This document shows, in pieces, positions 3,266 through 44,527 of a stretch of DNA of 64,000 nt. A model generated the notes under the pieces. The model worked only from the letters and a program-made list of their open reading frames with translations, was not told the DNA's origin and made no database searches. This DNA comes from Trypanosoma brucei (Eukaryota). Numbering within the stretch: position 1 is the stretch's first letter; every line of letters begins with the position of its first letter. The position numbers and the translations under genes were made by a program. Where the stretch lies: the NCBI GenBank assembly GCA_000002445.1, contig CP000066.1, positions 1,536,001-1,600,000 on the forward strand, given 5' to 3'.

Positions 3266-3598
3266 AAGACGTTGCGAAGTCTCACCACATGGGGGTACAT
3301 ATTCGCACGCACATCCGTACACTTTTCGTGGTAACTCCTCTGCTTGTTTACTCATAATTCAAGCGTCGGGTTACCTTGCGATGCTCCTGTTTCTACGTTA
3401 ATGAGGATGTCGCCTTGAGTAAAATACCATGGGTTTAACTAATACAAACTTTCCTTGTAAATCATCTTTTTTTTTTCTTTGCTCTTTGTAGGTAGTAGTG
3501 GTCTGGGTTTGGTGGGCAAGTACTCATTGGGAATCGTGGAGGGTAACAGAGAGAGAGAGAGTGCTGGATAAAAAAGAAAAGAAAAAGTGTGTGTAGAA

Positions 3599-6178
3599 AT
3601 GCCACCACCGGCTCTACCAACAATTCGCCACCCAAGTGGTCTCCAGAAACCTCCACTGCCTGCAATCAGGAAACCCACCATGGATGATGGAGTCGCGCGG
3701 ATGTTGGAAACTGGAAACTTGTCTGCAGATGTTGATTTGGAGGAATTCTTCAATAAAGAAGGTGTCTTTAAAGCCGTGAAGGCACCAGTACACCCCGTTA
3801 AGGAGCGACAACTTCCCAGAGTCATGACAAAGACGTCTTCGTACGCAAGATACAATGGAGTATTGTTAGACATCGAGGACATCCGTAAGATTCCACCGAA
3901 GTTGAATTTGCAGGATCTTCGGGAGTGGGAAAATGGTGTAGATGATGACGACGATGCAAGCGATGTGACGTCTTCGTTGTACGGCACAGTACTAAAGAAC
4001 GCTGGAGAAATCATGACCCATTTGCAGGCTCCGCAGCGTAATGACACACGTACATATGTAGAACTTTTAGATGAGTACTCTATGCACGAATTTATTATCA
4101 GAAAGGGAATGACGCTCCGAAATACACCGGAGTTTGCCTCTTTCAAGCGTCGATATAATTCCTGTTGGGGCAACATCGAGCATATAGTGGTGAAGTTGGA
4201 GAACTTCCTCAAAATGTATAACGTCGAACTTGCTTTTGTGGATGGTAGAAAAGTCGCTGAGTTAGCTGCCTTTCAAGTGGATGACATTTTGAAGCGTGAG
4301 GATCTGTTACAGTGCTTTGCAAATCACGAAGAAGTAGAAGAGATGACTGCAAATGTGTCACAGTTGTATGCCGCTGCAGACAGCGGCCGAAAGTTGGCAG
4401 TAGAAAAAATTCAAGCTACGTGGCGTATGTACCAACAGCGCATCGCCTATCGGCATTTACTTGATGGAAAGAAGGCTGCCACTACCGTACAGCGCGCATG
4501 GACGTTATACCGGTTGCATTGTACAACGAGGAAGACAATCAAGGCGTTACGCGAAACGCGTTTACTTCGGTGGAAACACACGATGGAAGAGTTTATAAGG
4601 AAGTGGCCCAAGATCAGGGATGGGCCTCGACGCATCATCCATGTGCCGTCGTTGTCGTATCCACGCTTTCATGCGAAGCACGTCCCGTTTTACCTTCTCC
4701 TTCAAATGGGGCAAATCATTCGTGTGTCGGATCTTAAGGATCCCAACGTTGAAATAATTCTTATTGTCCCCATGAGGCCGGAACCAGAGATATTAGAGTA
4801 TTATTACTCAATGTTGGCGAGCGCCGGCGTACCAGACGTGAAAAGTCGTTTAACCTTGCTAGTTCCTGAGGAGGCGAAGCGGCTTCCAGGTGTTCTCAGT
4901 TTGACGAGGCTGATGCTTCTCAGCTCAAGGCTGATGAAATGCCTCGCGTCAGCGAGCAAAGGCCGCGACACCTACATCGTTCCTGGTGTTGTGGGTGCTG
5001 AGGAGTTATCTCTTGCCACCGAACTGAATGTACCAATGCTTAGTGCAGATCCAAATATTGCTCAGGCGTTTGGAACAAAAAGTGGGGGTCGGCGGCTGAT
5101 GGATTTAGCGGCCGTGCCGGCCCCTCCCGGTGCGCATGGGCTCAACGATAGGAATGATCTTCTCTCTGCGTTGGCGTTGCTTATGGTTAATTACAGGGAG
5201 GTTTCTCGGTGGCTTGTTAAGTTAGATACAGAATCTGGGAGTCGTGGTCACGCTTATTTTGATGTGAATCGTATTCACGTCATGGCTGGCGTCGACGAGA
5301 GCAAGAAGACGTATGAAAATGTTTTAGCTGAACTTAAGCAGCACGCCGGTAAGCGGGCCCGGCTGCTTAATCCGCTTAGTTACTCTGACTGGGAAGCATA
5401 TCTGAATATGTTCGACGTGGTTGGAGGTTGTGTAGAGGCGGTACCCAATCGAATTAAGACATCCCTGACGGCAAATCTTTTCGTGGAACCGAGCGGTGTA
5501 GTGGCAGTTAACTCTGTTGTAGAACCGATGCTTGCTCCTGCTTTTACGGTTATTGGATGTCAGTATCCGTTTTCAAAGGTGGTCCCGTACGCTGCGGTGC
5601 GTGATGCAGCGCTGGCTTTGGCCAAGGCTGCGTATCACAAGGGTATTATGGGCTACATGTCTGTTGATTTTGTTGTCACAGATGTCAGCGAGAATTCTTT
5701 ACCTCGGTTGTATGCGGTTGATGTTGACCTTTGCTTAACCAATAACGCAGCAGCGCATAGCTTCGCCTGTCTAGTGGCCGGTTGTGAATGGAATGCCGAG
5801 GAGGGAACCTGCTTATTCCGTGGCACCGCTAATAGTCTGTCATATGCGTATAGTGGGTTGATATATAGCCCACTTCTCGCTTCCGTGAGGCACAAGTCAT
5901 TCTTTACTCTTTGTCATCGAAAGGGGTTAACATTTGATAGCCAATTACAGTCTGGTATTGTGTATCACCTACTTTCCATTATCACATGTGGCTGCGTTGG
6001 TGTGTTGTCTCTCGGAACACAGCGCAATGTTGTGGCCAGGAAAATGAAGGAATTTCAAAGCTTACTGAACTTGGAGTTGCCAAAACAGGGCGAGCACACG
6101 GGGGAAAGTAACATCATGTACTTCTATTCTGCAACCCACCAACTGGTACGTTCTGTGCAAGTATCTGAAATGAAGTAA
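3599..6178 (+). CDS. Hypothetical 860-aa protein with two IQ calmodulin-binding motifs.
   Basis: This is a long + strand ORF. The listed start at 3587 is GTG, and the first ATG is at 3599 (MPPPALPTIRH...). The IQ motifs are 'EKIQATWRMYQQRIAYRHLL' and 'TTVQRAWTLYRLHCTTRKTIKALRETRLLRWK'. I recognise no other domain. Confidence 0.6.
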   Translation: MPPPALPTIRHPSGLQKPPLPAIRKPTMDDGVARMLETGNLSADVDLEEFFNKEGVFKAVKAPVHPVKERQLPRVMTKTSSYARYNGVLLDIEDIRKIPPKLNLQDLREWENGVDDDDDASDVTSSLYGTVLKNAGEIMTHLQAPQRNDTRTYVELLDEYSMHEFIIRKGMTLRNTPEFASFKRRYNSCWGNIEHIVVKLENFLKMYNVELAFVDGRKVAELAAFQVDDILKREDLLQCFANHEEVEEMTANVSQLYAAADSGRKLAVEKIQATWRMYQQRIAYRHLLDGKKAATTVQRAWTLYRLHCTTRKTIKALRETRLLRWKHTMEEFIRKWPKIRDGPRRIIHVPSLSYPRFHAKHVPFYLLLQMGQIIRVSDLKDPNVEIILIVPMRPEPEILEYYYSMLASAGVPDVKSRLTLLVPEEAKRLPGVLSLTRLMLLSSRLMKCLASASKGRDTYIVPGVVGAEELSLATELNVPMLSADPNIAQAFGTKSGGRRLMDLAAVPAPPGAHGLNDRNDLLSALALLMVNYREVSRWLVKLDTESGSRGHAYFDVNRIHVMAGVDESKKTYENVLAELKQHAGKRARLLNPLSYSDWEAYLNMFDVVGGCVEAVPNRIKTSLTANLFVEPSGVVAVNSVVEPMLAPAFTVIGCQYPFSKVVPYAAVRDAALALAKAAYHKGIMGYMSVDFVVTDVSENSLPRLYAVDVDLCLTNNAAAHSFACLVAGCEWNAEEGTCLFRGTANSLSYAYSGLIYSPLLASVRHKSFFTLCHRKGLTFDSQLQSGIVYHLLSIITCGCVGVLSLGTQRNVVARKMKEFQSLLNLELPKQGEHTGESNIMYFYSATHQLVRSVQVSEMK

Positions 6179-6912
6179 TGTGTCGTTGGTGTGGTGGGGA
6201 AGTGGAGTATGGAAATTATTTTGGAATCACACTTTCTGATGACTAAAATTTGTGGTGCAAACATGTCGTACATGGATCGTAACTGCGTCTCATTTAAACC
6301 CACACGAAATGTAACTTGCGAACAGGTGTGTTAAGGTTCTTTCGCTACCCCATGCGAGTTGTTATCGTTGCAGCTTTATTGTAAATGAAGGAGCCATCAC
6401 CACCTCTTCCACCACTCCGTCTTCTTCTGTACATGTAACTTACAGTGCTTATTTCCCCCTCCTGAATGTGTGTGTGTGTGTGTTTTTGTGCGTTCTTTTG
6501 TTGTTGATGTTGCTGTTACCATTCAGTTGCAATTGTTCATACACATTTCACACGCCCTTTTACTCACATGACTCTTTTCCACATTCATCCCTCTCGCTGC
6601 GGTCGTTTTCATTCCGGTCGCCAGCACAGAAGGCGCACCTTTCAGTTGTTGTTTAGGTTTAGGCTTTTTTTTGTTGTTTTCCCTTTTTCATATTTGTTAC
6701 TCTGCGTATTCCTCCGTGGGAGTATTTTTCATACCTCTGAAGGCCCACCAATAAGGCACCATTGTTACTGACTCCCTACATTAAGGGGTGTTGTAGTGCA
6801 TTTGAAGGGAGAAGGCGGGTGCTGCGTGGAGAAAGCGAGAGGCAAAGGAAAAGGAAACAGAAAAAGCTGTGTTGGTCAGAGGAAGCGGGAGGAAGGTAAA
6901 TATCATCAGGTC

Positions 6913-9648
6913 ATGTCGGACAACAGAAAAGCAGTGGACGTTACCGTTCTGTCAGAGGATCCTAAGAAGAAAGAAAATGAGAAGAAAGCACGTGAGGCTG
7001 AGTCGCTGAAGATGAGTGAAGAGGATGAACGCATAAAAGGCCAAGTTGAACTTCTTGTTACGCGCGTGGGCGACAGCAACACTGAGTTGGCAGCGGTTGC
7101 GGTTGATCAACTGATTGATTTGCTGCGGACGCACACAAGCGGCAGCGTGGCATCGGTTCCAAAACCACTCAAGTATGTCCGCTCCATGTACGGGCAATTG
7201 GAGAGGGTTCAGAAAGAGACTACTAACCCTAAGCTCGCTGTTCGCCTCCACGACGTACTTTCTTTCGTGGCTATGACCATTGAGTTCCCTGATGGCCAGC
7301 GTCCGGCTCTAGAGCACAAATTGCTAGGTACTCAAGATGATCTCGCCCATTGGGGTCACGAGTATCTCCGCTTCCTCGCCGGGTGCATTAGTACAGAGTG
7401 GAAGGAACGTGTTAGCAAAGGAGAAAGTGTCGTCCACTTGGATGGCTTTATTCAACAAATTGTGAGCTATATGGTGAAACACCAGGATGAACCTACAGCC
7501 GTCGACCTCCTTATGGAAGTGGAGAACATCAAAGCAATCATTCCATTTATTGATGGTCACAACCACAGGCGTATTGCATCTTACTTGGCTGCTGCGAGTA
7601 AGTATTTAACTCGTCCAATGGACACTGAGGCTCTCCGTGTGGTGTATGATATTTATGTAAAAATGGAATCGTACACGGAGGCTCTCTTTGTAGCCTTGCA
7701 GTTAGGTGATCGTGCTGCCGTGGAGAACCTCTTCAAAATGTGCGAGAAGTCTTCTGTAAGCTTGCAAATGGCGCTGAGTTGTGCGCGCTATAGGTTTTTC
7801 CTTCCAAACGACAATGAGGAACAAGGAATTCTCTCTAGTGCTAACGGTAATATGAAACTTTCAGAGCTGTATCGTCACGTCGCAACGGAGCTTGATGCTA
7901 TGACTCCGCTGACACCCGAGGATATATTTAAGACAGGTCTTGACGGGAAGCAGTCCAGCAGTGCCTCTGACAGCTCCTTCAAACTTGCATGTTCCTTCGC
8001 TAGTGGTCTCGTAAACTGTGGATATGGTAAGGATATGTATTTGACAGGTGAGGAAGCCACGTGGCCCAGTGAGCAAACTGATAACCGCCTCTTCGCAACA
8101 ACATCCATGTTGGGGCTTATTCATCTATGGGATCACGCGGACGGTCTACTGGAAATTGAAAAATACCTCCACTCAGATACTGTCAATATCAGAGCCGGTG
8201 CTTGCCTGGCCACTGGTATTTCCCTATGCGGGGTGAGCCATCCCTACGACCCTGCTCTTGGACTCCTCAACGATTTTGTGTGTGCCCCGCATAAAGAGGT
8301 CAGGATTGGTGCTATTCTTGGCTTAGGTTACGCTTATGCAGGGTCGATGCGGGAGGAAATAAGGGAATTGTTGGTACCAATCCTTATCGATGGCGAACAA
8401 ACAATGGAGGTTCAGTGTTTGACAGCGCTTGCACTTTCAATGGTTTTCGTCGGCTCCACAGACGAGGGGATGGTCGAGACGATAACGCATATTCTTTTGG
8501 AGATGCCAGAAAAGGACCTAAAGGAATCCGCCACCTGCTACATTATCCTTGCACTGGGCTGCCTGTTTCTTGGACGGCAAGAAGCTGCTGATACTCTTCT
8601 GGACACTTTGCAAACATCTTCACCTATTATAAGACGTTATGCAGAGATCGTAGTGCGTAGCTGCGCCTACGCGGCAACAGGGAACGTGGTTGTCATCCAG
8701 AACTTCTTTCACGCAATCGCCGAGAACGATGAGCCTGAAGATACTGAGGTTCCTGCGGCCGAGGGCGACGGAAATGGTCAACAGCAGAAAAAAAACCGAC
8801 AGCAGCAGTCCACAGAGAATGCAGCGCATTTAAACTATAAGGCCGCTGCAGTACTTGGTATTGCATTGGTTGCCCTTGGAGAGGATATTGGAACAGAGAT
8901 GGCCAAGCGTTCAATCATTCATACACTTCTCGTCGACACGGTGAGCAAAGGTGAGGCAAATATATCGGGCAGGCATGCCATACCCCTGGCGTACGCATTG
9001 CTTTCAGCATCCAACCCCGGTATGCAGGTCGTAGAGACACTCAACCGCCTCTCACACGACAGCGACATGCTCACTGCAATAAATGCTATTGTGGCCATGG
9101 GTGTAGTGGCTGCAGGAAGTAACAACGCCAGGGTTGTGAGCAAACTACGGAACCTCGCTTTATATTACCAGAAAGATCGCTTCGCTTCTTATCTTTTCTC
9201 GGTGAGACTTGCGCAGGGGTTTACAATGATGGGTAGGGGCCATTTAACCCTTTCCCCATTGTTGAATGACCGTTCACTGGTTTCCCCCACGGCACTCATG
9301 GGGTTGCTTGTATTTTTACACAGCGCTCTGAACTTCGAGGAAATCATCCTCGGTAAGTACAGCTATATGGTCTCCAGTATTGCTCCCAGCATTAACCCGC
9401 GCATGGTGCTTGCAGTTGATGATCAGATGGAAGTTGTTAAAGATGGCGTGCAGGTGCGCGTGGGATTGCCTGTTGATACCGTCGCTGTTGCTGGGAAACC
9501 GAAATCCATCACAGGTTTCCAGACTCAAACCACACCAACGCTTATTAGCGTCACAGACAAGGTAGAGGTTGCCTCTCAGAAGTACAGGCCGGTTGCCAGC
9601 GTTGTGGAGGGTACATTTGTTGTGGAAGAGAAACCAAATATGGAGTAG
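6913..9648 (+). CDS. RPN1: 26S proteasome regulatory subunit RPN1 (non-ATPase subunit 2, PSMD2 homolog).
   Basis: The ORF is listed from 6796, but the first ATG at 6913 (MSDNRKAVD...) follows a Gly/Lys-rich leader that is unlikely to be coding. The N-terminus is KEKE-rich. Matches to remembered PSMD2: 'SVPKPLKYVRSMYGQLERVQ' versus 'SVPKPLKFLRPHYGKLKEI'. 'LLGTQDDLAHWGHEYLRFLAG' versus '[21 protein letters not shown]'. 'GKPKSITGFQTQTTPTLIS' versus 'GKPKTITGFQTHTTPVLLA'. PC repeats are present ('GAILGLGYAYAGS', 'AVLGIALVALGEDIG'). Confidence 0.7.
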   Translation: MSDNRKAVDVTVLSEDPKKKENEKKAREAESLKMSEEDERIKGQVELLVTRVGDSNTELAAVAVDQLIDLLRTHTSGSVASVPKPLKYVRSMYGQLERVQKETTNPKLAVRLHDVLSFVAMTIEFPDGQRPALEHKLLGTQDDLAHWGHEYLRFLAGCISTEWKERVSKGESVVHLDGFIQQIVSYMVKHQDEPTAVDLLMEVENIKAIIPFIDGHNHRRIASYLAAASKYLTRPMDTEALRVVYDIYVKMESYTEALFVALQLGDRAAVENLFKMCEKSSVSLQMALSCARYRFFLPNDNEEQGILSSANGNMKLSELYRHVATELDAMTPLTPEDIFKTGLDGKQSSSASDSSFKLACSFASGLVNCGYGKDMYLTGEEATWPSEQTDNRLFATTSMLGLIHLWDHADGLLEIEKYLHSDTVNIRAGACLATGISLCGVSHPYDPALGLLNDFVCAPHKEVRIGAILGLGYAYAGSMREEIRELLVPILIDGEQTMEVQCLTALALSMVFVGSTDEGMVETITHILLEMPEKDLKESATCYIILALGCLFLGRQEAADTLLDTLQTSSPIIRRYAEIVVRSCAYAATGNVVVIQNFFHAIAENDEPEDTEVPAAEGDGNGQQQKKNRQQQSTENAAHLNYKAAAVLGIALVALGEDIGTEMAKRSIIHTLLVDTVSKGEANISGRHAIPLAYALLSASNPGMQVVETLNRLSHDSDMLTAINAIVAMGVVAAGSNNARVVSKLRNLALYYQKDRFASYLFSVRLAQGFTMMGRGHLTLSPLLNDRSLVSPTALMGLLVFLHSALNFEEIILGKYSYMVSSIAPSINPRMVLAVDDQMEVVKDGVQVRVGLPVDTVAVAGKPKSITGFQTQTTPTLISVTDKVEVASQKYRPVASVVEGTFVVEEKPNME

Positions 9649-11571: not shown

Positions 11572-14500
11572 ATGGAAGAGGACAAAAAACATTGGAGTTA
11601 CGACGCGGAAAACGAGGGTGTGTTACGCGACACCCCCTCTCCACTTCAGATACAAGAATCCATTGGGAACGATGGGAATACACAAACAGAAGGTAATGAG
11701 CACGGTGATTCTACAACAGAAGAAAATATCAGCAACAGCGAAGTAAAATGTGAAATTGAAATTGTGGAAAAGGTTCATCCGGATGCCGAAGAGGAAGAGG
11801 CACGTCTCAGAGCTGAAGAGGAGGCACGTCTGAGAGCTGAAGAGGAGGCACGTCTGAGAGCTGAAGAGGAGGCACGTCTCAGAGCTGAAGAGGAATCACG
11901 TCTCAGAGCTGAAGAGGAGGCACGTCTCAGAGCTGAAGAGGAGGCACGTCTCAGAGCTGAAGAGGAGGCACGTCTGAGAGCTGAAGAGGAGGCACGTCTC
12001 AGAGCTGAAGAGGAATCACGTCTCAGAGCTGAAGAGGAGGCACGTCTCAGAGCTGAAGAGGAGGCACGTCTCAGAGCTGAAGAGGAGGCACGTCTCAGAG
12101 CTGAAGAGGAGGCACGTCTGAGAGCTGAAGAGGAGGCACGTCTCAGAGCTGAAGAGGAGGCACGTCTCAGAGCTGAAGAGGAGGCACGTCTCAGAGCTGA
12201 AGAGGAATCACGTCTCAGAGCTGAAGAGGAGGCACGTCTCAGAGCTGAAGAGGAGGCACGTCTCAGAGCTGAAGAGGAATCACGTCTCAGAGCTGAAGAG
12301 GAGGCACGTCTGAGAGCTGAAGAGGAGGCACGTCTCAGAGCTGAAGAGGAGGCACGTCTCAGAGCTGAAGAGGAGGCACGTCTGAGAGCTGAAGAGGAGG
12401 CACGTCTCAGAGCTGAAGAGGAGGCACGTCTCAGAGCTGAAGAGGAGGCACGTCTCAGAGCTGAAGAGGAGGCACGTCTCAGAGCTGAAGAGGAATCACG
12501 TCTCAGAGCTGAAGAGGAGGCACGTCTCAGAGCTGAAGAGGAGGCACGTCTCAGAGCTGAAGAGGAGGCACGTCTCAGAGCTGAAGAGGAATCACGTCTC
12601 AGAGCTGAAGAGGAGGCACGTCTCAGAGCTGAAGAGGAGGCACGTCTCAGAGCTGAAGAGGAATCACGTCTCAGAGCTGAAGAGGAGGCACGTCTCAGAG
12701 CTGAAGAGGAGGCACGTCTCAGAGCTGAAGAGGAGGCACGTCTCAGAGCTGAAGAGGAGGCACGTCTCAGAGCTGAAGAGGAGGCACGTCTCAGAGCTGA
12801 AGAGGAGGCACGTCTCAGAGCTGAAGAGGAGGCACGTCTCAGAGCTGAAGAGGAGGCACGTCTCAGAGCTGAGGAAGAGGCACGTCTGAGAGCTGAAGAG
12901 GAGGCACGTCTGAGAGCTGAAGAGGAGGCACGTCTCAGAGCTGAAGAGGAAGAGGCACGTCTCAGAGCTGAAGAGGAGGCACATCTTGAAAGTAAAGACT
13001 CTTCCGTTAAACGACCCATCCAATGTGACGATGGTTGTAGGTGGATTAGGGCTGATGAGGTTGCAGCAGTTTCAGCAATTGAGGGGCCCACAGGTTCAGC
13101 TTTAGATGATTGTCTTTCGTATTCGTTTGTTGGTATAAGTTCCTCTGAAGTTTCTGTGGGAGGGGAAAACTGCGATGCATTTATGGGTAAAGGTGATACA
13201 TCATCGGCAAGTGATAACGCGCGTAGTGATCACTTGACCGGCCGTTCTTGTTCCAAAACAGTGCCCTTGAAACATCCGTTAACAAATAACATTCCATGCC
13301 ATGATGAGTTTGAAATTTGCATGGAGGAAGAGCTGCTGCGTATGGGTTACGCTGAATCGGATATCCACGTCCGCTACCTGGAACTTCACCACCACGAGAC
13401 GTCACGGGAGCCTGGGCGTTGTCTGTATCCTCCTCTTGAGAGTGGAGGTGGTGTCTTGTCCCCACAAAACATTCAAATTGGTTTCTTCAGAAGCAAGCAG
13501 GTCGTCATTGCTTCCCACTCCTTGGTATCCAGGAGAGTGGCTAAGCGCGAGAGGAGCGCTAAAGTTGGTGAGAGGGCTTTAAGCGACTCGCGGTTCTTCT
13601 TCGAGAATGAACTAATGTCCGACACTACGGTTACAACGGAAGACAGAAATTTACCTCACAATAGCCCTGATGAGCAACTTGTTGAGGAACAGAAACTAAG
13701 GACTAACCAAAATAACCTCGTGGCAGCTGCGCTCTCCCGTTTTACCCTTGGTGACCCTGTTCAAGTGTGGGAGCAGGCATGCGGGTTCTCCCTTGATCCT
13801 GTCCCCGGTATTAGGGATGGTGTGAGACAACTTCCTACACATGTGACTGGGGAGACGTCTTCGTATATATGGGCACACGAAATCGCAACTAACAAGCCAG
13901 TTCCCGCAATGAAAGCCTTTGACTCCGGCGTTCTGCTTCGTGTTGAATGTACGTCTATCGCGAGTCGACTCCTCGAGGTACACAAGGATGCAATAGATCC
14001 TGTCATTGTATCGGTGGCATTCTACAGTATGGGCTCCAGTACCAAGTTAAAGGTGTCTGAGACATTTTTTTTTGATTCGTGTGTCGACATTTTCTACCCT
14101 CACAAGGAGCGCAGTGAACTCAACAGAGAAAGTCGAGCGATGGCTTTTATTCCACAAGAGTTCTTCGCCTCCCTTTACCTCGTTATGCGTGTGTACCGAC
14201 CCTGCTGTGAGGATCAGGACAGTTATGTAGACCTCTACAGCAGACCCGACCGCTACAAAAGCCAGCAGGTTACTCTTATGAAGCAGAACACACAGCTGCT
14301 TGCCATGAAATCTGATATTTTTGAGGAAATTGGCTGGTACATGATGCCTTGTGTAAAGAATAAGAGTGTGGTTGAAACGTTGGAGACGACCAAATTGTAC
14401 CAAAGAGGGGCACCCGATGCACAGGTATTTCAATTGGTAGAAAATGAGCGTGCGCAGAAAGCATTAGCCACACTCCCTTTCTTCGCTTCTTTCAGCTTGA

Positions 14501-17500
14501 AGCATTGTAAGGGATGCGAAGTTGAGTTTCCGTCCCAGCATGATGAACCACTTCCTGAGGAAAATGAGACGATTATCAAGGTGTGCACCCGAAGCGATAC
14601 CGAAGTACAGGAGGAAACTTGCCGATTTGTTCCTTGCATCATACCCATACTAAACTCAGGGTTTTTCAACTCTTATCATAATGTGTACTACTTTCGTCTT
14701 GACAGGGTGAAACTGGTAAGCACTGGGATATTACGAACTGTTCCCTCGACGCACCGCACATTTGTCATGGAGATCAATGTAAGAGACAACGACACATCAT
14801 TGTCTGGTGAAAACCTACCGCTTTTGTACGGGAACAGGCTATCAGCAAAGACACTGCAGACGTCCGTGTGGGCCTCAGCTGTTCACAATTCTCTTGACTT
14901 TTCGTTGAGCGATGAGTTTAAGGTGCAACTGCCACTCCATCTTGGCGAAAAGTTCCATATATTTATAACCCTCTATGCCTGCTGTAAGAAAATGGACAAT
15001 TCTTCAGAAGAAATGCAGAAAATGCACAAGGTTGGTTATGCAGCATTTCCTATTATCCATAACGGTGTGGTGCGGGTGAAGGACGAGTGGACCATCAAGT
15101 TCATCGCAGCGGATCAAGTACTTGAAGGGTCGGAAAAATCATATCTAGATAAATTCTCCGAGGCAGCTGACGAGGCGCACCTTAATGGTGGTATCCCTGT
15201 CTTGTCTGTCAGTACGCAGACACGTACCTCTGTTCATGCCTCTAATGCCATCATTGCCAGTTTACTGAAGGAGATGCCGGCTTCGTTGGAGAGTATTTTG
15301 CGTAATGATAACTTGTTCCGCGTTTCCGGGAATTTGAAAGATATCTATAGGTCCGATGATGACGCAATTCACAGCAGTTTGATCCGTAAAATGCGGAAAC
15401 TTCCTCTGGCGGAGATTCTAGCTTTTTATCCACTTCTTTCGTTCTTCATACTGTCGCTGATCAGTTCACCGTCGAAAAGTGTCAGTTTACCCTGTCGAAC
15501 CGCAGCTTTGGAGGTACTTCTTGACATTACAATCAAAACGCAGCATTATGATCTTACAACCCGTTCGCGTCAAAAACAGCACTCAGCACGGGGTGTTTCC
15601 AAAACCTCCGTAACCCGCTTTCTCTATCACCATCTTACTAATGATTTACTGTATAATGGAGAGAAGCAACGCCTCTACGCCGGATTTGCAGAGACATGGT
15701 TACATCTACTGGTGGCGTGTAGACCGCATTCAGAGAACACTGACCAAGGTGCTGGGGATAAAACTGCGAAGGACGACCGTGAACAAGACAAGAGGAACAT
15801 TCGCAAGCGGATGGCAGATCTGTCGTGGTTTTTATTCGGTGTGATATTGCGTTCTATTTACATCTGGGCACTGGAGAACCCCAGCATTCCTCGAGCGAAG
15901 TTGTTGGACCCCGGTTTCTACTCGATTATTGGTGACCTCTGCGTAGAAGCTCTTGACGTTCTTGACGGTTTTGGAATCGATGATGTCCTTGTTCGGCGCA
16001 CGGCACTCTTTACGAGGAATCTGTTTAATTTCTGTGATCGCGGAAAGGTGCTTAACATCACCCAACGAATCGTGGAGTTCTTCGAAAAACGGCAAGATAT
16101 GGAGGGATTGGGCACGTTTATGAGTATCATTCTTGACGACGTGGATGTCGTTACGTTGATGATTCCTTCTTCGTCATACACCCAACCCGTCTTTCTTACT
16201 CGTATATTAGTACATGCCTTCTCGCTTTTACTCTCCAGTCCAAGCCAGGTCGTGCGTTCCTCATCTTCGGACGTGCTCTACAAATTCATTTGTCGTGTGA
16301 CAAATGGTGTGCGTTACCCCGCAACCTGTTTGCGCTGGATGGCCTCGCAACTCCTTGCTTTGGTACGAGAGGTTTCACTTCGGTGGAAAGCGTATGTGCA
16401 AATGTGTGAGAAGACAGAGTCTGTTGCTACAATTGAGGACAAGCGTCAACTCTGTGTTTCGATACTTTGGATAATTTATTATGCACCACCAGGTCGTCTA
16501 CGAAATTGGTTGAAGGGAGAGCGCGACAGTGACGTAATTTCTGGTCTTTTGAGCCTTGTAAGTGATGCGCAACACCTCTTTCGCTACACCGCGGGCGTTG
16601 ACAAGGCAAATCCACATGGTGTTAAGGAACCAACCCAATGGATGCGGGAGTGGGATGCGCGCATGTCAACGTTTGTTGCTGCAATTGGTGCATATGTGTG
16701 CAGCGCAGTCCTCCATGCTGTTCCTGATGCACTAAAGAGTCTCCGAACTGAGAAAGTGGATCCAATTGTGTTCCCGTTCTTTCATTTGTTAGAAGGTGTA
16801 TTGCATCTTGGAAATTCAACAGCCGCCCTTCAGATTGGTTCCTGTGCCCTACTGGAAGTTGCTCATTCTATCTTTCCGGAGATTTTGTGTTCCACTTCGC
16901 GGATGTGCAGCGGTATGGCAGTACTTGTGATGAGTCTGATGAGTAGTTGTTCGGTGCATGTGCGTTCAATGGCGGAGGAGGTGCTGTTCCTGATGTGCTA
17001 CGCCTGTTACACGGGGTGCAGGTCAGTCGCAAAAATCAAGGCGCCGATCTTCAGCGCAACGGTTTACGTGGCGGAGTCTAAAAAGCGTGACCTTCGTTTA
17101 GCTGGAGGTTTTCTCGAACTCCATCTCTCGAACTTAGTGCGAAAAGCTCAACAGTCGGGAGACAACTTCCCCCCGTTTTCCCAGTCGTATGTAAAGCGCT
17201 GTGAAGCTGACTCAGAAACCCCCGGTAATGAGGTTACCGCAGGGCGCCGGCATTGTGGAGAGTCACCATTTACTTCTGTCGAGCGGATGAGCCCGATACC
17301 ATCTTGCCTTATCAGCAACGGTGTGAATGGAATCGCATCACTTGTAGGAAACCGTAGGACAAGTGCTATTGTTGGAAGCGAACAGGGCAGCAACAACTGT
17401 AATGAACCACCCTCATTCGCAGAGGAGCTGGCTTCAGTGAGGGAAATATCCATGATGTTGTTCGGTAGCGTTCGGCAACTGATGCAGACCGAATCTCTTC

Positions 17501-18963
17501 GGCTGAAGGAGGCGAAGGCGCTCCAACACTTCAAACTTGCCGTGCAACTGTTGAGGGTGGGTGCAGTGCATGAATGCCTCAGATGGTTTCAGCGCCTTCA
17601 TGAACTGCACAAAGCGAACAACAACATGGGGGAGGCGGGCATTGTTTTGTTGTTTGTAGCGGCTCTTTGTTTTCGTCTAACAGAAGCCTTCTACCAAGTA
17701 AGAGGAAAGGAATCACGAGGAGCACGCATACCATTTATTGTGTTCTCCCACGTGTTCTGGCACGATTACGCGCGGCTTCTTCCTGAAGTGGACACACTTC
17801 TTACTGGTGATGTTTTGTATACGGTGGTGTCGGAGTTGAGGGTTCTCCCTAGCGACCCCTGCTTGTCACTTTCAGGACATGTAGAAGTGTTGCGAGGGGC
17901 TGCGTCGCTGTTAGATAAGGATCATTATAACATCTTCTCTGTAGGTGTGTTAAGCATTGTTGAGCGTTACTACCGTTTGTTGAATGACTTCAAAGCTGCC
18001 GCCTCAATCCACTCAGCGATGGCGGACGGTTGTTATGCGGTTTCTAAAGAAGATCGACAAAAGCGGGAGAATCACTGTTACTTTTTGCTTTGGGCTCGCA
18101 TGAACCGGGCAGAAGTTGAGTTACATGAGATGGATGGTAACGAATCCATGCAAAACGGATACAGCCTGCCTCTAAAATGCGTGTTTAAAATGCCAGCTAA
18201 AACTAAGTTGGAGCAGTTTTTGGAATGTAGCAAAGACTTCGTTAGGCCCCTTCTCAAAGACGCCACTCCTCTTGTTGTTACGGAAATGGCGGAGGAACAA
18301 AAAGATATGGGAGCTTTAGAAGCTTCGAAATTACCACCGGAAAATTGCTGTTTATTAAGCGTGTGTGAAGTCAACCCATGCTTTTCCAGTGGTAGGCGGA
18401 AGCTCACCGACAGTTACGATAGAAATGCTTCCCTCAATAAATTTGAGTACATGACGTACACATACGACAACAGTCGGGAGTATGGCGACGCCAAGCCGGA
18501 TAGTGCTTTACTAAGGAACCGTTTGGTTGTGTACAAATACCACCTTGAGCGCTCATTCCCTTCAACAACGAATGTCATAGACGTTGCCACTACACATATT
18601 GACCAGCTTGATACCGCGGCCACCGTTGCACACGTCCTGGGCAAAAGCATTGAAATGTTGCAGGCGCCGGTGGATAACGACGAACTTGTCGGCACACTGC
18701 TACGAGCGCTTACGCCCGGTGGGTTCGCGCGGCCAGGCGCTTATATAAAAGAAGTCATCACTACAATGAGTACGAATAGTGCTGTAATGACTCAGGTGCG
18801 ATCCCTCAGCAAACTACTGAAGACGAAGTTGACACTTTGCGAAAAGCATGACGCTCCACTAAATAGCACAGAGAATTACGCACTTGTTTTAAAGGCTGTG
18901 ATGGATATAGAGTGTACGCTTATTACTTTGGATGACAAGGTAGGGGTAGCCTGCAGTCAATAG
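11572..18963 (+). CDS. Giant 2463-aa protein. The N-terminus carries an acidic/Arg-rich tandem-repeat domain of about 50 x EEEARLRA. The C-terminal two thirds have DOCK-family (DHR-1/DHR-2-like) features of a guanine-nucleotide exchange factor.
   Basis: The ATG at 11572 is genuine, and this is the longest ORF in the window. The repeat is read directly from the sequence. A DHR-2-like segment, 'GAVHECLRWFQRLHELHKANNNMGEAGIVLLFVAALCFRL', matches the remembered DOCK motif '[37 protein letters not shown]' in the pattern W..L.....n..EAa....aal. A DHR-1-like segment is 'GEKFHIFITLYACCKK' versus the DOCK motif 'HLLFTFYHVSC'. The domain call is from memory only. Confidence 0.6.
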   Translation: MEEDKKHWSYDAENEGVLRDTPSPLQIQESIGNDGNTQTEGNEHGDSTTEENISNSEVKCEIEIVEKVHPDAEEEEARLRAEEEARLRAEEEARLRAEEEARLRAEEESRLRAEEEARLRAEEEARLRAEEEARLRAEEEARLRAEEESRLRAEEEARLRAEEEARLRAEEEARLRAEEEARLRAEEEARLRAEEEARLRAEEEARLRAEEESRLRAEEEARLRAEEEARLRAEEESRLRAEEEARLRAEEEARLRAEEEARLRAEEEARLRAEEEARLRAEEEARLRAEEEARLRAEEEARLRAEEESRLRAEEEARLRAEEEARLRAEEEARLRAEEESRLRAEEEARLRAEEEARLRAEEESRLRAEEEARLRAEEEARLRAEEEARLRAEEEARLRAEEEARLRAEEEARLRAEEEARLRAEEEARLRAEEEARLRAEEEARLRAEEEARLRAEEEEARLRAEEEAHLESKDSSVKRPIQCDDGCRWIRADEVAAVSAIEGPTGSALDDCLSYSFVGISSSEVSVGGENCDAFMGKGDTSSASDNARSDHLTGRSCSKTVPLKHPLTNNIPCHDEFEICMEEELLRMGYAESDIHVRYLELHHHETSREPGRCLYPPLESGGGVLSPQNIQIGFFRSKQVVIASHSLVSRRVAKRERSAKVGERALSDSRFFFENELMSDTTVTTEDRNLPHNSPDEQLVEEQKLRTNQNNLVAAALSRFTLGDPVQVWEQACGFSLDPVPGIRDGVRQLPTHVTGETSSYIWAHEIATNKPVPAMKAFDSGVLLRVECTSIASRLLEVHKDAIDPVIVSVAFYSMGSSTKLKVSETFFFDSCVDIFYPHKERSELNRESRAMAFIPQEFFASLYLVMRVYRPCCEDQDSYVDLYSRPDRYKSQQVTLMKQNTQLLAMKSDIFEEIGWYMMPCVKNKSVVETLETTKLYQRGAPDAQVFQLVENERAQKALATLPFFASFSLKHCKGCEVEFPSQHDEPLPEENETIIKVCTRSDTEVQEETCRFVPCIIPILNSGFFNSYHNVYYFRLDRVKLVSTGILRTVPSTHRTFVMEINVRDNDTSLSGENLPLLYGNRLSAKTLQTSVWASAVHNSLDFSLSDEFKVQLPLHLGEKFHIFITLYACCKKMDNSSEEMQKMHKVGYAAFPIIHNGVVRVKDEWTIKFIAADQVLEGSEKSYLDKFSEAADEAHLNGGIPVLSVSTQTRTSVHASNAIIASLLKEMPASLESILRNDNLFRVSGNLKDIYRSDDDAIHSSLIRKMRKLPLAEILAFYPLLSFFILSLISSPSKSVSLPCRTAALEVLLDITIKTQHYDLTTRSRQKQHSARGVSKTSVTRFLYHHLTNDLLYNGEKQRLYAGFAETWLHLLVACRPHSENTDQGAGDKTAKDDREQDKRNIRKRMADLSWFLFGVILRSIYIWALENPSIPRAKLLDPGFYSIIGDLCVEALDVLDGFGIDDVLVRRTALFTRNLFNFCDRGKVLNITQRIVEFFEKRQDMEGLGTFMSIILDDVDVVTLMIPSSSYTQPVFLTRILVHAFSLLLSSPSQVVRSSSSDVLYKFICRVTNGVRYPATCLRWMASQLLALVREVSLRWKAYVQMCEKTESVATIEDKRQLCVSILWIIYYAPPGRLRNWLKGERDSDVISGLLSLVSDAQHLFRYTAGVDKANPHGVKEPTQWMREWDARMSTFVAAIGAYVCSAVLHAVPDALKSLRTEKVDPIVFPFFHLLEGVLHLGNSTAALQIGSCALLEVAHSIFPEILCSTSRMCSGMAVLVMSLMSSCSVHVRSMAEEVLFLMCYACYTGCRSVAKIKAPIFSATVYVAESKKRDLRLAGGFLELHLSNLVRKAQQSGDNFPPFSQSYVKRCEADSETPGNEVTAGRRHCGESPFTSVERMSPIPSCLISNGVNGIASLVGNRRTSAIVGSEQGSNNCNEPPSFAEELASVREISMMLFGSVRQLMQTESLRLKEAKALQHFKLAVQLLRVGAVHECLRWFQRLHELHKANNNMGEAGIVLLFVAALCFRLTEAFYQVRGKESRGARIPFIVFSHVFWHDYARLLPEVDTLLTGDVLYTVVSELRVLPSDPCLSLSGHVEVLRGAASLLDKDHYNIFSVGVLSIVERYYRLLNDFKAAASIHSAMADGCYAVSKEDRQKRENHCYFLLWARMNRAEVELHEMDGNESMQNGYSLPLKCVFKMPAKTKLEQFLECSKDFVRPLLKDATPLVVTEMAEEQKDMGALEASKLPPENCCLLSVCEVNPCFSSGRRKLTDSYDRNASLNKFEYMTYTYDNSREYGDAKPDSALLRNRLVVYKYHLERSFPSTTNVIDVATTHIDQLDTAATVAHVLGKSIEMLQAPVDNDELVGTLLRALTPGGFARPGAYIKEVITTMSTNSAVMTQVRSLSKLLKTKLTLCEKHDAPLNSTENYALVLKAVMDIECTLITLDDKVGVACSQ
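11788..12984 (+). repeat. Perfect 24-bp tandem repeat (GAAGAGGAGGCACGTCTCAGAGCT), about 50 copies, in-frame and encoding (EEEARLRA)n.
   Basis: Read directly from the sequence. The only variants are a synonymous ctc/ctg (Leu) change and gca/tca (Ala/Ser) in about 10 copies. The last copy degenerates to EEEAHLES. A 438-aa antisense ORF (11775-13091, 'SSSALRRA'n) is an artefact of the repeat. Confidence 0.97.
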
Positions 18964-20100
18964 CGATAAACCAATGTGGTGCGTGAGATATTAAAAGGTA
19001 TTTTAAGGTTAATATATTTTGGGGGTTGGATGGCGTCACCATTATTAATATTTTAATCATAGAAAATACTCTCGCGTCATATTGATGTAGTGGTTGGTGA
19101 TTTTTTTTGCTTTTGTTATTTTCGTGTGCTTTAAGATCCAGCGTTGCGGTAGTGTTCACCCTCCCCCCGATGGGGTCAAATATTTGGCCTTCAAAACAAA
19201 TGTTGAATTAACCTTTTGATGATGATATCATTTTCATTTTTTTCTCCATAACAATGAATGTTTCGTGTCTGATAAATTGATGGTGAGTGCGATGGGCGTG
19301 TTATCGCTACCATTCCTTTTGCTTTAATCACCGCCTCTCCTGTTGGATTTTCTCAATGTGTGAACGTGCTTCCATCACTCAGCACTGCTGCAGACACAGA
19401 CGAATACAATACTACAAATGAATACAGATATATATGTTGTTTCCCTCTTTTTGTTCCTTTTTTGTTTCAATTTTACCGTCGCTCAGCGGCTGTTTCTTCG
19501 ATCGTCCCTTGAATGTGATTCTCTTCATAACGCTGGGTTGATTGAGTGCTCTGCACTTGTATCTAATCGTGCTTAGTGGTGGAACAGTTTTAAATTATCA
19601 TCATGACTTGAAGGAGCTGGGAAGTCGGAATTGATTCCGGTATTTTTTAAAAAAAAATAGAAAGAGAAATTATATACAAGTGCCCCTCTCTTTTTTGTGT
19701 TTGTTTCTGTGCGTTTATTTGCATTATTAACAGGGAGAAGTAACCATAGGTAACGTGCTAAGCGGTTTAGGAGAGCTGTGAAGGGGCGTGTTTAATTCTC
19801 TTTTTTACGTGTGATCCCTTTTGTCGCTATCACTATTTCGTCAGTTCTATTATTATTGTTATTATCACTTGCTACTGTGTCATGTCTCCGTTGTTCTTCG
19901 TAATGTAGTAAAGGTTGAGCATTTGATAGAGTTTTTTTTTCTTATTTTATTGGTTAAGGGTGCTTGTATCACCAAAGGGGGAGCACGCGGAAGTGCGGTA
20001 GGGCGAATAGACGCGAAAAGAATTGCAAAAAAAAAAAGTAGTGAATACTCTGAACACTACATTACAGGGGCTATTAAGGCAATTTTTTTCTAGTGAAGAG

Positions 20101-21705
20101 ATGCCCATTCCGTGTAATTTCAAGGATCAAATAACAGGTGAAGTTCATATTCCCTCAACTTCCCGCGCAAATGTTACGTACAAACAATGTGAATGTCAGA
20201 CGGGTGTGCTTAAGATGCAAGATATGGAAACACAAACAGCGATTAGCGCTCTTCAGGCAGTCAACCGAAGCGACAAACAAGTTGGCCACGAGAAACCTCA
20301 GATCCAGGCAAATATCGATGGGCTGCAATATGTTTATGCTGGAGTAAATTACAGCGAGGAGGCTCTGGCTGATTTCCTGGAGGCGGCGAGGGAAGACGTC
20401 CTTGCTATATTATACCGCAATGTAAAAAACAGTGCGTTTGACAACTACGAGCCGAATTGGACGAAAAAGAGCACTGAACTCTCTGCTGTTGCAACTTTCC
20501 GGGCGTCGTATGCCGAGGAAAGAGATCTTCACGCCTTATCCGTGAGTTTTAACTCCAGCGGAACACTCTTAGCCGTTGCATACGGCCAAGTGGATACCGC
20601 AGGGTGGTGTAATGATACAGGCATGGTTGGTATATGGAACTTGTCACGAAATGATGTAAACGTTAATGAACCGCATCACATGATGGAAACTGATTCCTTC
20701 GTCACATGTGTTGCATTTCATCCATCACAGGCAACAGTGTTGGCAGTGGGACTGTACAGTGGTGAGGTGGTACTTTATAAAAATGTGACGGATGCGACAC
20801 CGATAGAGATGACAGCAGACGGATCTTCAACATCGCACAGAGAGCCCGTGACATTCCTGCAGTGGACTGAAAACTTACAGGAGACGCGTGATTCCCATCG
20901 GTACACGCTTTGTTCCGCGGGCCAGGATGGTCGTATCCTCTTTTGGACTATGGGCAATAAAATGGCGCAACCAACAGCCGCATTTATCATTAAAACCAGG
21001 AAAGGAGCAACGGTTGGTGTGCAGTCCGCTTGTTTCTCCCGTCCCGGGGGCTCCGCCGGTCGCATCACACCATCGAGCGACAGTGTTCTCGTCATTGGTC
21101 TTGAAAATGGTGATGTTGGCCGAGCCCGTCCTGGCGTCCTTGCTGCCCTTCCAACTCGAGCTGGAGAGTCGGAGGTTTCTCTTGAACTTGATTGGTTGTC
21201 CTCTCACAGGGGTCCTGTGCAGTGCGTTGATACCTCGCCTTTCTTTCACAATCTCTGCCTCACTTGTTCTTCTGATGGCAGTGCTCGGCTGTACAACATG
21301 CTAGAAACGGCAGCAGTTGCCACATTAGAGCCGTCTGCGGAGTCGAAACATTTCCTTTATGCTGCGCGGTTTAGTCCTTTTAGACCCAGTGTTATTGCTG
21401 TGGTTTCGCGCAGCTCATTCCTGCATATATATGACTTGCAGAAATCGCAACTTAAGCCTGTAGTAACGTTGGAAGCTGGGACAGATGGCGCTGCACTGAT
21501 GTGTGTTACTTTTAATCATGCTTCACCGGATTGGATTTGTACGGGGGACGTCAGTGGCTCCGTCCGCCTCTGGAAGCTGCCGTCGTCCCTCATGCAAACC
21601 ACCGACTTGGAGCGGGCTGCTGTGCGGGATAGCCGTGGCCGTGGGGGGAATGCGGAAGACAGTGAAAAGAACGCCGTCATATCTCTGTTTGGTTTCTCTC
21701 TCTGA
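20101..21705 (+). CDS. WD40-repeat protein resembling dynein intermediate chains (candidate axonemal or IFT dynein intermediate chain).
   Basis: The listed ORF start at 20023 is TTG, directly after an oligo(A) run, and the first ATG is at 20101 (MPIPCNFKD...). WD-repeat signatures recur through the C-terminal 350 aa: 'VTCVAFHPSQATVLAVGLYSGEVVLYK', 'LCSAGQDGRILFWT', 'LTCSSDGSARLYNM', 'ICTGDVSGSVRLWKL'. The N-terminal region, 'LADFLEAAREDVLAILYRN...NYEPNW', fits the dynein intermediate-chain layout. Confidence 0.5.
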   Translation: MPIPCNFKDQITGEVHIPSTSRANVTYKQCECQTGVLKMQDMETQTAISALQAVNRSDKQVGHEKPQIQANIDGLQYVYAGVNYSEEALADFLEAAREDVLAILYRNVKNSAFDNYEPNWTKKSTELSAVATFRASYAEERDLHALSVSFNSSGTLLAVAYGQVDTAGWCNDTGMVGIWNLSRNDVNVNEPHHMMETDSFVTCVAFHPSQATVLAVGLYSGEVVLYKNVTDATPIEMTADGSSTSHREPVTFLQWTENLQETRDSHRYTLCSAGQDGRILFWTMGNKMAQPTAAFIIKTRKGATVGVQSACFSRPGGSAGRITPSSDSVLVIGLENGDVGRARPGVLAALPTRAGESEVSLELDWLSSHRGPVQCVDTSPFFHNLCLTCSSDGSARLYNMLETAAVATLEPSAESKHFLYAARFSPFRPSVIAVVSRSSFLHIYDLQKSQLKPVVTLEAGTDGAALMCVTFNHASPDWICTGDVSGSVRLWKLPSSLMQTTDLERAAVRDSRGRGGNAEDSEKNAVISLFGFSL

Positions 21706-35700: not shown

Positions 35701-35803
35701 CGCTTCCAGCAACCGAAGGCCGCATCCGCCTCCACAACTCCCAAAAAAGCAGAGTCGGTTGCCTCCTATGGGATCAGCAGTGCCGCCACCGCGCCGGTTT
35801 TAG
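32735..35803 (+). CDS. SPT16: FACT complex subunit SPT16.
   Basis: The protein is 1022 aa. Middle-domain matches to remembered SPT16: 'FHVSTISRVDVKFEGN' versus 'FHISTIKN', and 'IDMHFENIKHVIFQPAVNAVRVIYHITLKKGVEIARKSVDEVQFVAEVMESSETV' versus '[55 protein letters not shown]'. The C-terminal tail is strongly acidic ('EGDEEASEDSDSDDSTYVEEEDETDETGSSFLDDEESEPESSDEEDSE'). Confidence 0.8.
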   Translation: MSRVTLSASRMEKIVNAWRKVPDAAEGCSVMCCVFGALTPETLENQRGQAMLQYLFTSLNTVCNAALFFSFDKLLVVHSNLNVELPPSSESFTYASATLDEKFGEILAAFVADAKVGVCQKELNIQEGDFAPKLISVVREIVPAERTVEVGPLLGEFLFVKDEAALSCVEKAAGLCNAIFRRSARGMIESEMQKSNPKTLSALREQLTKTLEAPNTVMGLETLDVSQFSIASGLTPCIMHRGTYNPQISVTEVSTQPLRSDVIVVRYGLKNCGYTAFIARTLIAERNAPSNVKDVYKFVYNVTEKLLEHLRVGTRLSAVHEEVMKYATTTDEALAKHLPKSLGFSTGLLVLEARGTISQKGTATVEDGMAFVTRVTLEGVPDGEGGTFDVELSDTVTVKGGAAQLNTKTSRKLEEVLYDDSAEEETAFETSARDLNKITRQGQSSVPLLSRESAREEKLKTLLRELHAELAAAGGKKAKTAVSEEFRTYEIARLSYGDVIPYANETSFPDVARGGGIYVDTEKEVAFFPVCGGVAAFHVSTISRVDVKFEGNQVAGIFSFHSLQEGNIAYRLNRTKIFVKELTYRARRDIFTDVKIAIQGIQQRIKNRDTERRRVSLNAGGAQLQTVPDAIRLPQVKIRPPATTGRYNKECIGNLEIHRNGLRFSYIGGAPIDMHFENIKHVIFQPAVNAVRVIYHITLKKGVEIARKSVDEVQFVAEVMESSETVMAARKGYEEEIAAEERELMRISDTNKQFLKFAQAVERVSMIKTQIPASNFSFEGVHAKGLTTFKANREVLWAIMDRPPFTQRVEDIEVVSLERVIPGGSTFDVNLIFKDYNKPPASITTIPRSSLESLKDWCLAARLYYMETSVNPNWKVVLKTIIEDEDWDPWRPGAGWAVLNDDFEGDEEASEDSDSDDSTYVEEEDETDETGSSFLDDEESEPESSDEEDSESVLSWDEMERRAEQHDRQRGYGSDDDDRPRKRPRTSSGASSNRRPHPPPQLPKKQSRLPPMGSAVPPPRRF

Positions 35804-39623: not shown

Positions 39624-40074
39624 ATATTAACTGACCGTGAAAACTGGAAAAACACGGCAGTGGTGCGGTTGACTGTCGGTGATGGAAGCTGCAGAAGAGA
39701 AATAATGTCTGTTTTTTTCGTTGTCATCTCACTGAAACATGAATGGGGGGAGAGAGCGGTCCCAACATTTATTTGGGTTTGGTAATGGCATGTCTCTTTT
39801 TTGTCGTAACTCAACGCTAACACGTTTCAGTTGGGGCCAAAATTTTTTGAACCGTGCCAAGGTACACTGGTGACCAGCTTCTCACATCTTCACATGTGGT
39901 CGCATTATTGCTGCCCATCTTTTGTAATCTCCTTACTTATCCACCCTAATACCCTTTGTCTCCTAAATCCACTTGTCACTACACACATTAAGGCTTGAGG
40001 TTAACAAAAAAAAAAGAAAATAAAGCATACCCCATCAGTCATTTACAAATATTTCAAGAGAAAAAAGAGCTTTG

Positions 40075-44493: not shown

Positions 44494-44527
<34 letters not shown>

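Follow-up and report, generated by a model that had tools for sequence, protein, structure and literature searches.

A window of 64,000 nucleotides from Trypanosoma brucei (the whole stretch analysed here, contig CP000066.1, positions 1,536,001 to 1,600,000 of the forward strand; coordinates below count from its first letter) carries the gene of the protein Tb-292, and our analysis indicates that this protein is almost certainly a divergent but full-length homologue of the DOCK family of guanine nucleotide exchange factors (GEFs). The open reading frame (ORF) occupies 11572-18963 on the plus strand, is uninterrupted and encodes 2463 amino acids followed by a stop codon; compared along its entire length, the encoded protein shows 100% identity to the NCBI entry 'Tb-292 membrane associated protein' of T. 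brucei brucei TREU927. A repeat survey from 2007 lists 'Tb927.3.5530, 2 TM, 49 x RLRAEEE' (PMC2254594), and since these 49 copies match both the 49.5-copy tandem repeat and the 49 EEE(A/S)RLRA units counted in the ORF, the gene was identified as Tb927.3.5530. An earlier note on this DNA had called DHR-1 and DHR-2 domains from remembered motif patterns within 13000-18963, which corresponds to residues 477-2463 of Tb-292.

DOCK domain names derived from Pfam and InterPro already stand on Tb-292 orthologues in public databases, and a DOCK C2 domain is already precomputed in public data for Tb-292 itself. Our literature searches (DOCK, DHR-2 or Dock180 together with trypanosome terms, Tb-292 and the gene identifiers) found no functional study; the papers that they returned mention Tb-292 only as an antigen, as a repeat protein or as a component of an extracellular vesicle proteome. 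Nor was any paper found in these searches that treats Tb-292, or any trypanosomatid protein, as a DOCK or as a candidate GEF of TbRHP, the Rho-like GTPase of T. brucei. The present work adds the full-length DOCK assignment, an extra C2-like domain, a corrected transmembrane annotation and the clade-wide loss of the sensor valine of the catalytic domain.

Homology of Tb-292 to the DOCK family

The clearest single domain is the DHR-1, a DOCK-type C2 domain at 14668-15249 (+; residues 1033-1226). The Pfam DOCK-C2 model (PF14429) matches here with E 2.7e-21 and 76.8 bits, the gathering cutoff being 33.6, and is covered at its positions 2-186 of 187; the four orthologues scanned with Pfam score 66-75 bits. 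The block that the earlier note had likened to 'HLLFTFYH.SC' is FHIFITLYACC (residues 1128-1138, about 14953-14985), it lies inside the DOCK-C2 match as the counterpart of HLLFTFYHISC, and phmmer pairs it with HLLFTFYHISCQ of the solved DOCK8 DHR-1 (7clx). Further support for the domain comes from profile-profile (hhalign) blocks shared with canonical DOCKs. The DHR-1 of DOCK8, which was crystallised with phosphatidylinositol 4,5-bisphosphate (PI(4,5)P2; 7cly), is its closest solved relative. Leucine-rich-repeat structures (4r5d, 4r6g), which also appeared among the PDB matches, were discarded, as nothing but 'LHELH.(A/S)NNN.GE.G' is aligned in them and the matches are non-significant (E 0.03-0.7).

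In the DHR-2 all three lobes could be located. Lobe A is helical and occupies 17413-18060 (+; residues 1948-2163), as placed by Pfam PF06920 and by helices 8-223 of an AlphaFold2 model of the C-terminal segment that starts at residue 1941. The remembered DHR-2 pattern 'W.Q.L...H...NN..EA.......A.L' is exact at residues 2005-2032, WFQRLHELHKANNNMGEAGIVLLFVAAL (17584-17667), inside a Pfam Lobe A match (residues 2002-2155, E 4.4e-5) which, at 24.3 bits, narrowly misses the cutoff of 26; at the same position four orthologues (T. theileri, T. grayi, L. donovani and Phytomonas) reach 42.5-55.1 bits. This segment aligns with 'WL..M..IH..NGD..EAAMC..H.AAL' of DOCK10 and DOCK9. The beta-rich lobe B (18076-18606, +; residues 2169-2345) was delimited from strands 229-405 of the model, the profile search, MAFFT and hhalign. 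It holds kinetoplastid-specific insertions, and in it NHCYFLLWARM is the counterpart of YFRVAFFG and CLLSVCEVNPCF that of YIQVT.V.PYF. Lobe C, a helical bundle at 18613-18957 (+; residues 2348-2462), was placed by helices 408-522 of the model, by the alignments and by a conservation scan; it contains LDTAATVAHV, the counterpart of LSPIEVAI, and an invariant C-terminal YALVLKA..DIEC.

The profile tests were based on an alignment of the last ~525-540 residues of 16 kinetoplastid orthologues (named A1; mean column identity 73%), from which the AlphaFold2 model was made as well. Against the PDB the A1 profile matched DOCK10 (E 6.2e-6), DOCK7 (7.5e-5), DOCK9 (1.1e-4) and DOCK8 (1.5e-3), in alignments that ran from the last part of lobe B into lobe C (profile positions 320-489) and also took in the motif of lobe A; hhalign paired A1 with fish DOCK9 over 389 columns (DOCK9 residues 1605-2005; E 5.2e-5). 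An exhaustive HMMER search of 1.84 billion representative sequences with A1 gave 41 proteins at E <= 0.001; the strong matches included T. vivax, Bodo saltans, one EukProt sequence and several metagenomic proteins, and the weaker ones were canonical DOCKs.

The model itself has the lobe A/B/C layout, with a helical part (8-223), a beta-rich part (229-405) and a helical bundle (408-522). When it was compared with the PDB by Foldseek, 19 matches were obtained at E <= 0.001 (E 7e-14 to 2e-8), every one of them with a DOCK DHR-2 domain: 16 are DHR-2 domains and 3 are full-length DOCK5 or DOCK2 chains. The alignment covers all three lobes in 13 of the 19, with 460-490 columns to full DHR-2 structures. 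At the top stands the DOCK9-Cdc42 complex 2wm9 (E 7e-14, target-normalised TM-score 0.61, 461 columns), accompanied by DOCK10, DOCK2-Rac1, DOCK5-ELMO1, DOCK7 and DOCK8, and the first non-DOCK match, a TPR protein, comes at E 0.02. Both domain calls made from remembered motifs have therefore held: the DHR-1 through the Pfam DOCK-C2 score, the DHR-2 through the Pfam scores of the orthologues, the profile search of the PDB, hhalign and the three-lobe fold. Pfam, with its DHR matches, and Foldseek, with a fold compatible with DHR-2, agree on a DOCK protein.

The homology is not restricted to the two named domains. Eighteen clade sequences, each trimmed to begin where the conserved body begins, were compared with an alignment of six canonical DOCKs that the representative search had yielded: fish DOCK9, the Thecamonas 'Dock9' and four DOCKs of environmental or transcriptome origin. 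Five of the six were scanned with Pfam, and each of them matches DHR-1 and the three DHR-2 lobes. The result of hhalign was one collinear alignment of 1461 columns (probability 100%, E 9e-79), pairing residues 756-2425 of Tb-292 with residues 375-2038 of a 2090-residue DOCK, and because of this alignment practically everything in Tb-292 outside the repeat can be regarded as homologous to DOCK. The parts after the repeat follow one another in the canonical DOCK order, with the extra C2-like sandwich first, then DHR-1, the helical ARM-like region and a three-lobe DHR-2, and this arrangement was shown to be retained from Bodo saltans to Leishmania.

Among the DOCK subfamilies, the best DHR-2 sequence and fold matches were found in DOCK-D or zizimin (DOCK9, DOCK10, DOCK11; Cdc42/Rac GEFs), where 2wm9 and the DOCK10 structures 8i5f and 6tky were matched at E ~1e-13 and TM-score 0.6. 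Tb-292 resembles DOCK-D in the succession of DHR-1, ARM and DHR-2, in the lobe A motif W...L...H..N....EA and in having no SH3 or ELMO-binding N-terminus; it differs in the missing PH and DOCK_C-D_N matches, in 'GFARP' instead of 'VNAGP', in the low identity of the structural alignments (10-18%), in large lobe B insertions and in the N-terminal charged repeat of 49 x 8 residues. With DOCK-C (DOCK6/7/8) the likeness, judged by match scores, consists of the A1 profile matches to DOCK7 and DOCK8 given above and a weak one to DOCK6 (E 0.03), which fall in lobes B and C, of the DHR-1, which aligns best with that of DOCK8 (7clx/7cly), and of a common pre-DHR-1 motif, 'EPFF.....YD...K.RVSE.FHFD'; the catalytic-motif and N-terminal differences are the same as for DOCK-D. 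DOCK-A/B (DOCK180/DOCK1, DOCK2 and DOCK5, with ELMO) shares the DHR-2 fold (2yin, 3b13, 7dpa; E 3e-12 to 2e-11) and a related C2-type domain (DHR-1, 3l4c), but neither an SH3 domain nor an ELMO-binding helical N-terminus was detected in Tb-292, and the matches are weaker than those to DOCK-D.

Membrane association, the extra C2-like domain and the repeat

Between DHR-1 and DHR-2 lies a helical, ARM-like middle region (15250-17391, +; residues 1227-1940), which by hhalign is collinear with the segment between the two DHR domains in canonical DOCKs. Membrane association of Tb-292 is stated in the title of a J Biol Chem paper from 1994 (PMID 8132566) and is also taken from its localisation in TrypTag, and earlier papers annotate the protein with two transmembrane segments (PMC2254594; PMC5619722). 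In a hydropathy scan only residues 1276-1300 (15397-15471) and 2018-2043 (17623-17700) were strongly hydrophobic, and these two stretches are the likely source of the published annotation. By hhalign the first pairs with the first ARM helices after DHR-1 of soluble DOCKs, and the second with the 'EAAMC..H.AAL' helix of lobe A. Judged from these alignments the published transmembrane call looks like a false positive; an integral-membrane reading was ruled out, and Tb-292 is read as a peripheral protein because both stretches correspond to helices of soluble DOCKs.

The same alignments bear on the suggestion that Tb-292 is not a DOCK at all and that the motif matches arose by chance in a repeat-bearing integral membrane antigen. 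The historical naming and the transmembrane predictions (PMC2254594, PMC5619722) would fit such a protein, as would the T. brucei lobe A score just under the Pfam cutoff. Against it stand the E-values of the full-length alignment (9e-79) and of the DHR-1 (2.7e-21), significant fold matches only to proteins with a DOCK DHR-2 domain, and the pairing of both hydrophobic stretches with helices that are buried in soluble DOCKs. Chance resemblance is refuted by the Pfam DHR-1 match, Foldseek, full-length hhalign and the hydrophobic-stretch alignments together, and we regard it as hardly conceivable.

The kinetoplastid-conserved part of the protein starts at 13288-13926 (+; residues 573-785), as seen by BLAST and alignment of orthologues, with the motifs REPGRCLYPP and IQLGFF.AKQ; no counterpart of these residues was detected in canonical DOCKs. 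The first 214 residues of the pre-DHR-1 region have AlphaFold2 predicted local distance difference test (pLDDT) values below 50, and the region gave no Pfam match in ten aligned sequences and no sequence match in the PDB. It is followed, upstream of DHR-1, by an extra C2-like beta-sandwich at 13927-14511 (+; residues ~786-980), predicted with a local pLDDT of ~60-90 compared with a value of 54 for the model as a whole. In the PDB the sandwich is best matched by the DHR-1 domains of DOCK8 and DOCK180 (E 1.6e-4 to 6.7e-4); by hhalign it is collinear with the conserved pre-DHR-1 region of canonical DOCK-C/D-like proteins, with which it has the motif DPVIVSVAFYS...KVSETFFFD in common. An SH3 or other N-terminal Pfam domain was not found in Tb-292 at E <= 1, and neither PH nor DOCK_C-D_N (PF11878) matched the full protein or the ten aligned pre-DHR-1 segments. 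In hhalign there was only a collinear hint of these DOCK-D parts, which is non-significant (E 0.53).

The N-terminal part is dominated by a 24-nucleotide tandem repeat of 49.5 copies at 11797-12986 (+; Tandem Repeats Finder, 95% matches, score 2178), which encodes 49 units of EEE(A/S)RLRA in residues 74-466 (393 residues; 42 EEEARLRA and 7 EEESRLRA). In this pattern every Glu and Arg has a partner of opposite charge at i/i+4, and the 8-residue period leaves no heptad or coiled-coil seam; for these two reasons the repeat is predicted to form an ER/K-type single alpha-helix (SAH) rod rather than a coiled coil, with a length of ~59 nm if it is wholly helical. ER/K SAH domains occur in myosin X, myosin VI and caldesmon, for example. 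The Tb-292 array is like them in its continuous i/i+4 Glu-Arg pairing and in its lack of a hydrophobic heptad seam, and differs in being a perfect 8-residue tandem of ~393 residues, far longer than characterised SAHs.

Repeat sequence and length differ between the orthologues of different species, and many clade members begin with E/A/R-rich repeats of another sequence. The charged N-terminal extension thus appears to be conserved as a feature and not in its sequence, selection seemingly acting on its composition and length. Four distant relatives of Tb-292 (P0026, P0028, P0031, P0034) carry N-terminal E/A/R/Q-rich charged repeats or coiled-coil-like stretches with unrelated units, for example EEARQEAEERARQ. 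Several matches to the repeat were rejected as artefacts. A Pfam DUF2345 match at residues 377-479 lies wholly within the EEEARLRA repeat and is compositional, a low-complexity effect, and the PF08017 matches in orthologues are of the same kind; an antisense ORF of 438 residues (11775-13091, -) falls almost entirely within the 24-nucleotide repeat, the opposite strand of which has no stop codons.

Localisation, Rho context and catalytic competence

Endocytosis, exocytosis and surface-coat turnover take place at the flagellar pocket alone, and the pocket is a key to immune evasion. In the source-data sheet 'Figure5I' of TrypTag, Tb927.3.5530 is found under flagellar-pocket 'points' as one of ten proteins in the class, the tagged protein forming discrete points on the flagellar pocket of procyclic T. 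brucei (PMC9981465); the guess of the earlier note that the protein might be positioned at a flagellar structure agrees with this listing. The pocket is also a site of PI(4,5)P2 enrichment, the lipid being produced by TbPIPKA (PMC4802737). The same note had assumed a highly reduced Rho repertoire, and this premise was supported: TbRHP (Tb927.10.6240), conserved in trypanosomes and Leishmania and described as cytoplasmic, is the one Rho-like GTPase of T. brucei, and the only predicted Rho GTPase-activating protein (GAP) is the OCRL-related TbOCRL, the GAP of TbRHP, for which GTPase the paper names no GEF (PMC3214021).

On balance we lean towards the view that Tb-292 is a soluble, peripheral DOCK protein of the flagellar pocket that acts on a small GTPase, most likely TbRHP. 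Its recruitment to the membrane through C2 domains is rather probable: the DHR-1 C2, and perhaps the second C2-like domain, would bind acidic phosphoinositides. Lobes B and C of the DHR-2 would hold a nucleotide-free small GTPase and promote the release of GDP, and the chances that this putative exchange activity is real seem to us about even. The substrate would most likely be TbRHP, the sole Rho-like GTPase of T. brucei, although taken by itself this assignment is tentative. Tb-292 would then complete a GEF-GTPase-GAP module with TbRHP and TbOCRL. The inositol 5-phosphatases of the OCRL family, to which TbOCRL belongs, include proteins such as OCRL1 that act on phosphoinositides, and the proposed module would therefore be tied to phosphoinositide metabolism. 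The long charged repeat may serve as a spacer or rod, being an immunodominant antigen only incidentally.

Several observations weigh against this picture. Pfam lobe B (PF20422) and lobe C (PF20421) gave no match in Tb-292 or in the four orthologues scanned, and weak sub-threshold matches were seen in two more distant relatives, so that lobes B and C are recognised by homology and fold but stay short of the Pfam threshold. The AlphaFold2 model of the DHR-2 is only moderately confident (mean pLDDT 68.9, predicted TM-score 0.42). The most serious point concerns the alpha10 insert, whose counterpart in Tb-292 is LTPGGFARPGAY (18709-18744, +; residues 2380-2391; placed by MAFFT and hhalign). In the DOCK9-Cdc42 work of Yang and colleagues from 2009, the Val of this insert, Val1951 in DOCK9, is said to be the nucleotide sensor of DOCK GEFs. 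When lobes B and C of 15 clade sequences were aligned with those of eight canonical DOCKs by MAFFT, the 'V-N-x-G' sensor motif was present in all eight canonical proteins, including that of the prokinetoplastid Papus, and in none of the 15. In T. brucei G2384 falls on the sensor Val and F2385 on the Asn, a register that is the same in profile-profile hhalign, both alignments being gapless here; an earlier gapped hhalign gave an alternative register with F2385 on the sensor Val, in which a hydrophobic residue could stand in for it. Such a substitute would not be conserved: most species have a hydrophobic residue after the Gly position, T. vivax has Thr and Phytomonas has Arg. Furthermore, 'LSPIE' at the start of lobe C is replaced by 'LDPFET' in most kinetoplastids and by the degenerate 'LDTAAT' in T. 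brucei. Finally, knockdown of TbRHP is reported to lead to a mitotic spindle defect and not to an endocytic phenotype (PMC3214021).

The segment P-G-x-Y-x-K-E-V-I that follows the sensor position is nearly invariant in the clade and among the most conserved parts of lobe C, the invariant columns of A1 beside the sensor being G449, Y451, K453, E454 and I456. Because the sensor Val itself is not conserved, exchange activity of Tb-292 is still something that we infer. A DOCK of Papus ankaliazontas (P0043, EukProt) keeps 'TVNAG' and matches the kinetoplastid profile in lobe A only (E 1.1e-13). Trypanosomatids may have lost it as a separate, canonical paralogue, or it may represent the ancestral state of the Tb-292 clade.

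The state of the sensor site raises the alternative that exchange was lost and that Tb-292 is a DOCK-derived pseudo-GEF or scaffold, in which the DHR-2 fold is kept as a GTPase- or protein-binding platform and the protein works as a long tether or scaffold at endocytic or exocytic sites of the pocket. The clade-wide loss of the sensor Val-Asn next to a variable residue (F/V/I/L/T/R/A), the degenerate LSPIE-equivalent motif of African trypanosomes, a giant rod-like repeat well suited to tethering and the mismatch between the pocket localisation and the mitotic phenotype of TbRHP would all agree with it. Against it stands the strong constraint on lobes B and C from Bodo to Leishmania, the sensor-flanking segment included; a register shift of one residue would bring a hydrophobic residue to the sensor site in most species, and no other candidate for a trypanosomatid Rho GEF emerged from the literature searches or from the TbRHP paper (PMC3214021). 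We therefore consider the loss of exchange rather unlikely, yet it is the strongest competitor of an active peripheral DOCK.

The mismatch with TbRHP can be approached in another way, by supposing that Tb-292 is an active DOCK-type GEF whose specificity was rewired together with the altered alpha10 loop, its substrate being a Rab-, Arf- or RJL-like small GTPase of pocket trafficking. In the flagellar-pocket 'points' list Tb-292 stands beside two Tb927.3.4720/4760 entries, which we take to be dynamin-like protein genes; the cytoplasmic position and mitotic phenotype of TbRHP (PMC3214021) and the altered GTPase-contacting motifs of Tb-292 point the same way. The proposal is nevertheless improbable, as TbRHP co-occurs with Tb-292 across trypanosomatids and positive evidence for another partner is absent. 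To it is added that, to our knowledge, every characterised DOCK acts on Rho-family GTPases.

Returning to the peripheral DOCK with TbRHP as its candidate partner, a more far-reaching scenario can be drawn, which we put forward as speculation with little likelihood. The kinetoplastid clade would have swapped the Val sensor for another alpha10 loop (TP.G-hydrophobic-.P.G.Y.KEV), catalysing by a modified mechanism or switching to a non-canonical partner, and a minimal phosphoinositide-coupled Rho module formed with TbRHP and TbOCRL would control endocytic or exocytic sites of the pocket.

The surrounding window and the significance of the assignment

The neighbours of Tb-292 in the window are RPN1 (6796-9648), a WD40 protein (20023-21705), SPT16 (32735-35803) and a protein kinase (40072-42864), a set of genes that is compatible with a housekeeping polycistron. 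Upstream, an ORF of 863 residues (3587-6178, +) contains an IQCH-like ATP-grasp domain (PF24923, E 1.1e-57). Further downstream, an ORF of 490 residues (50000-51472, +) has a Trypanosomal VSG_B domain (E 3.6e-71) in a chromosome-internal position; it adjoins an AT-rich stretch at 42000-50000 with a GC fraction of 0.36-0.39. Beyond ~54 kb the sequence has a strongly positive AT skew (+0.2 to +0.29). The end of the window (58140-64000) is occupied by at least three tandem units of ~1.88 kb, 89-100% identical, each encoding a Cys-rich protein of 353-354 residues whose N-terminus looks like a signal peptide and whose hydrophobic C-terminal tail resembles that of glycosylphosphatidylinositol-anchored proteins; none of these proteins gave a Pfam match.

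The DOCK assignment explains the long-known 'membrane association' of Tb-292 without transmembrane helices. The loss of the sensor Val in the clade, conserved since the common ancestor of bodonids and trypanosomatids, is a natural test of the need for this residue in DOCK catalysis. As a complete DOCK homologue, Tb-292 is a concrete candidate for the GEF of the minimal Rho signalling of trypanosomatids, and its assignment links Rho-type signalling to the flagellar pocket.

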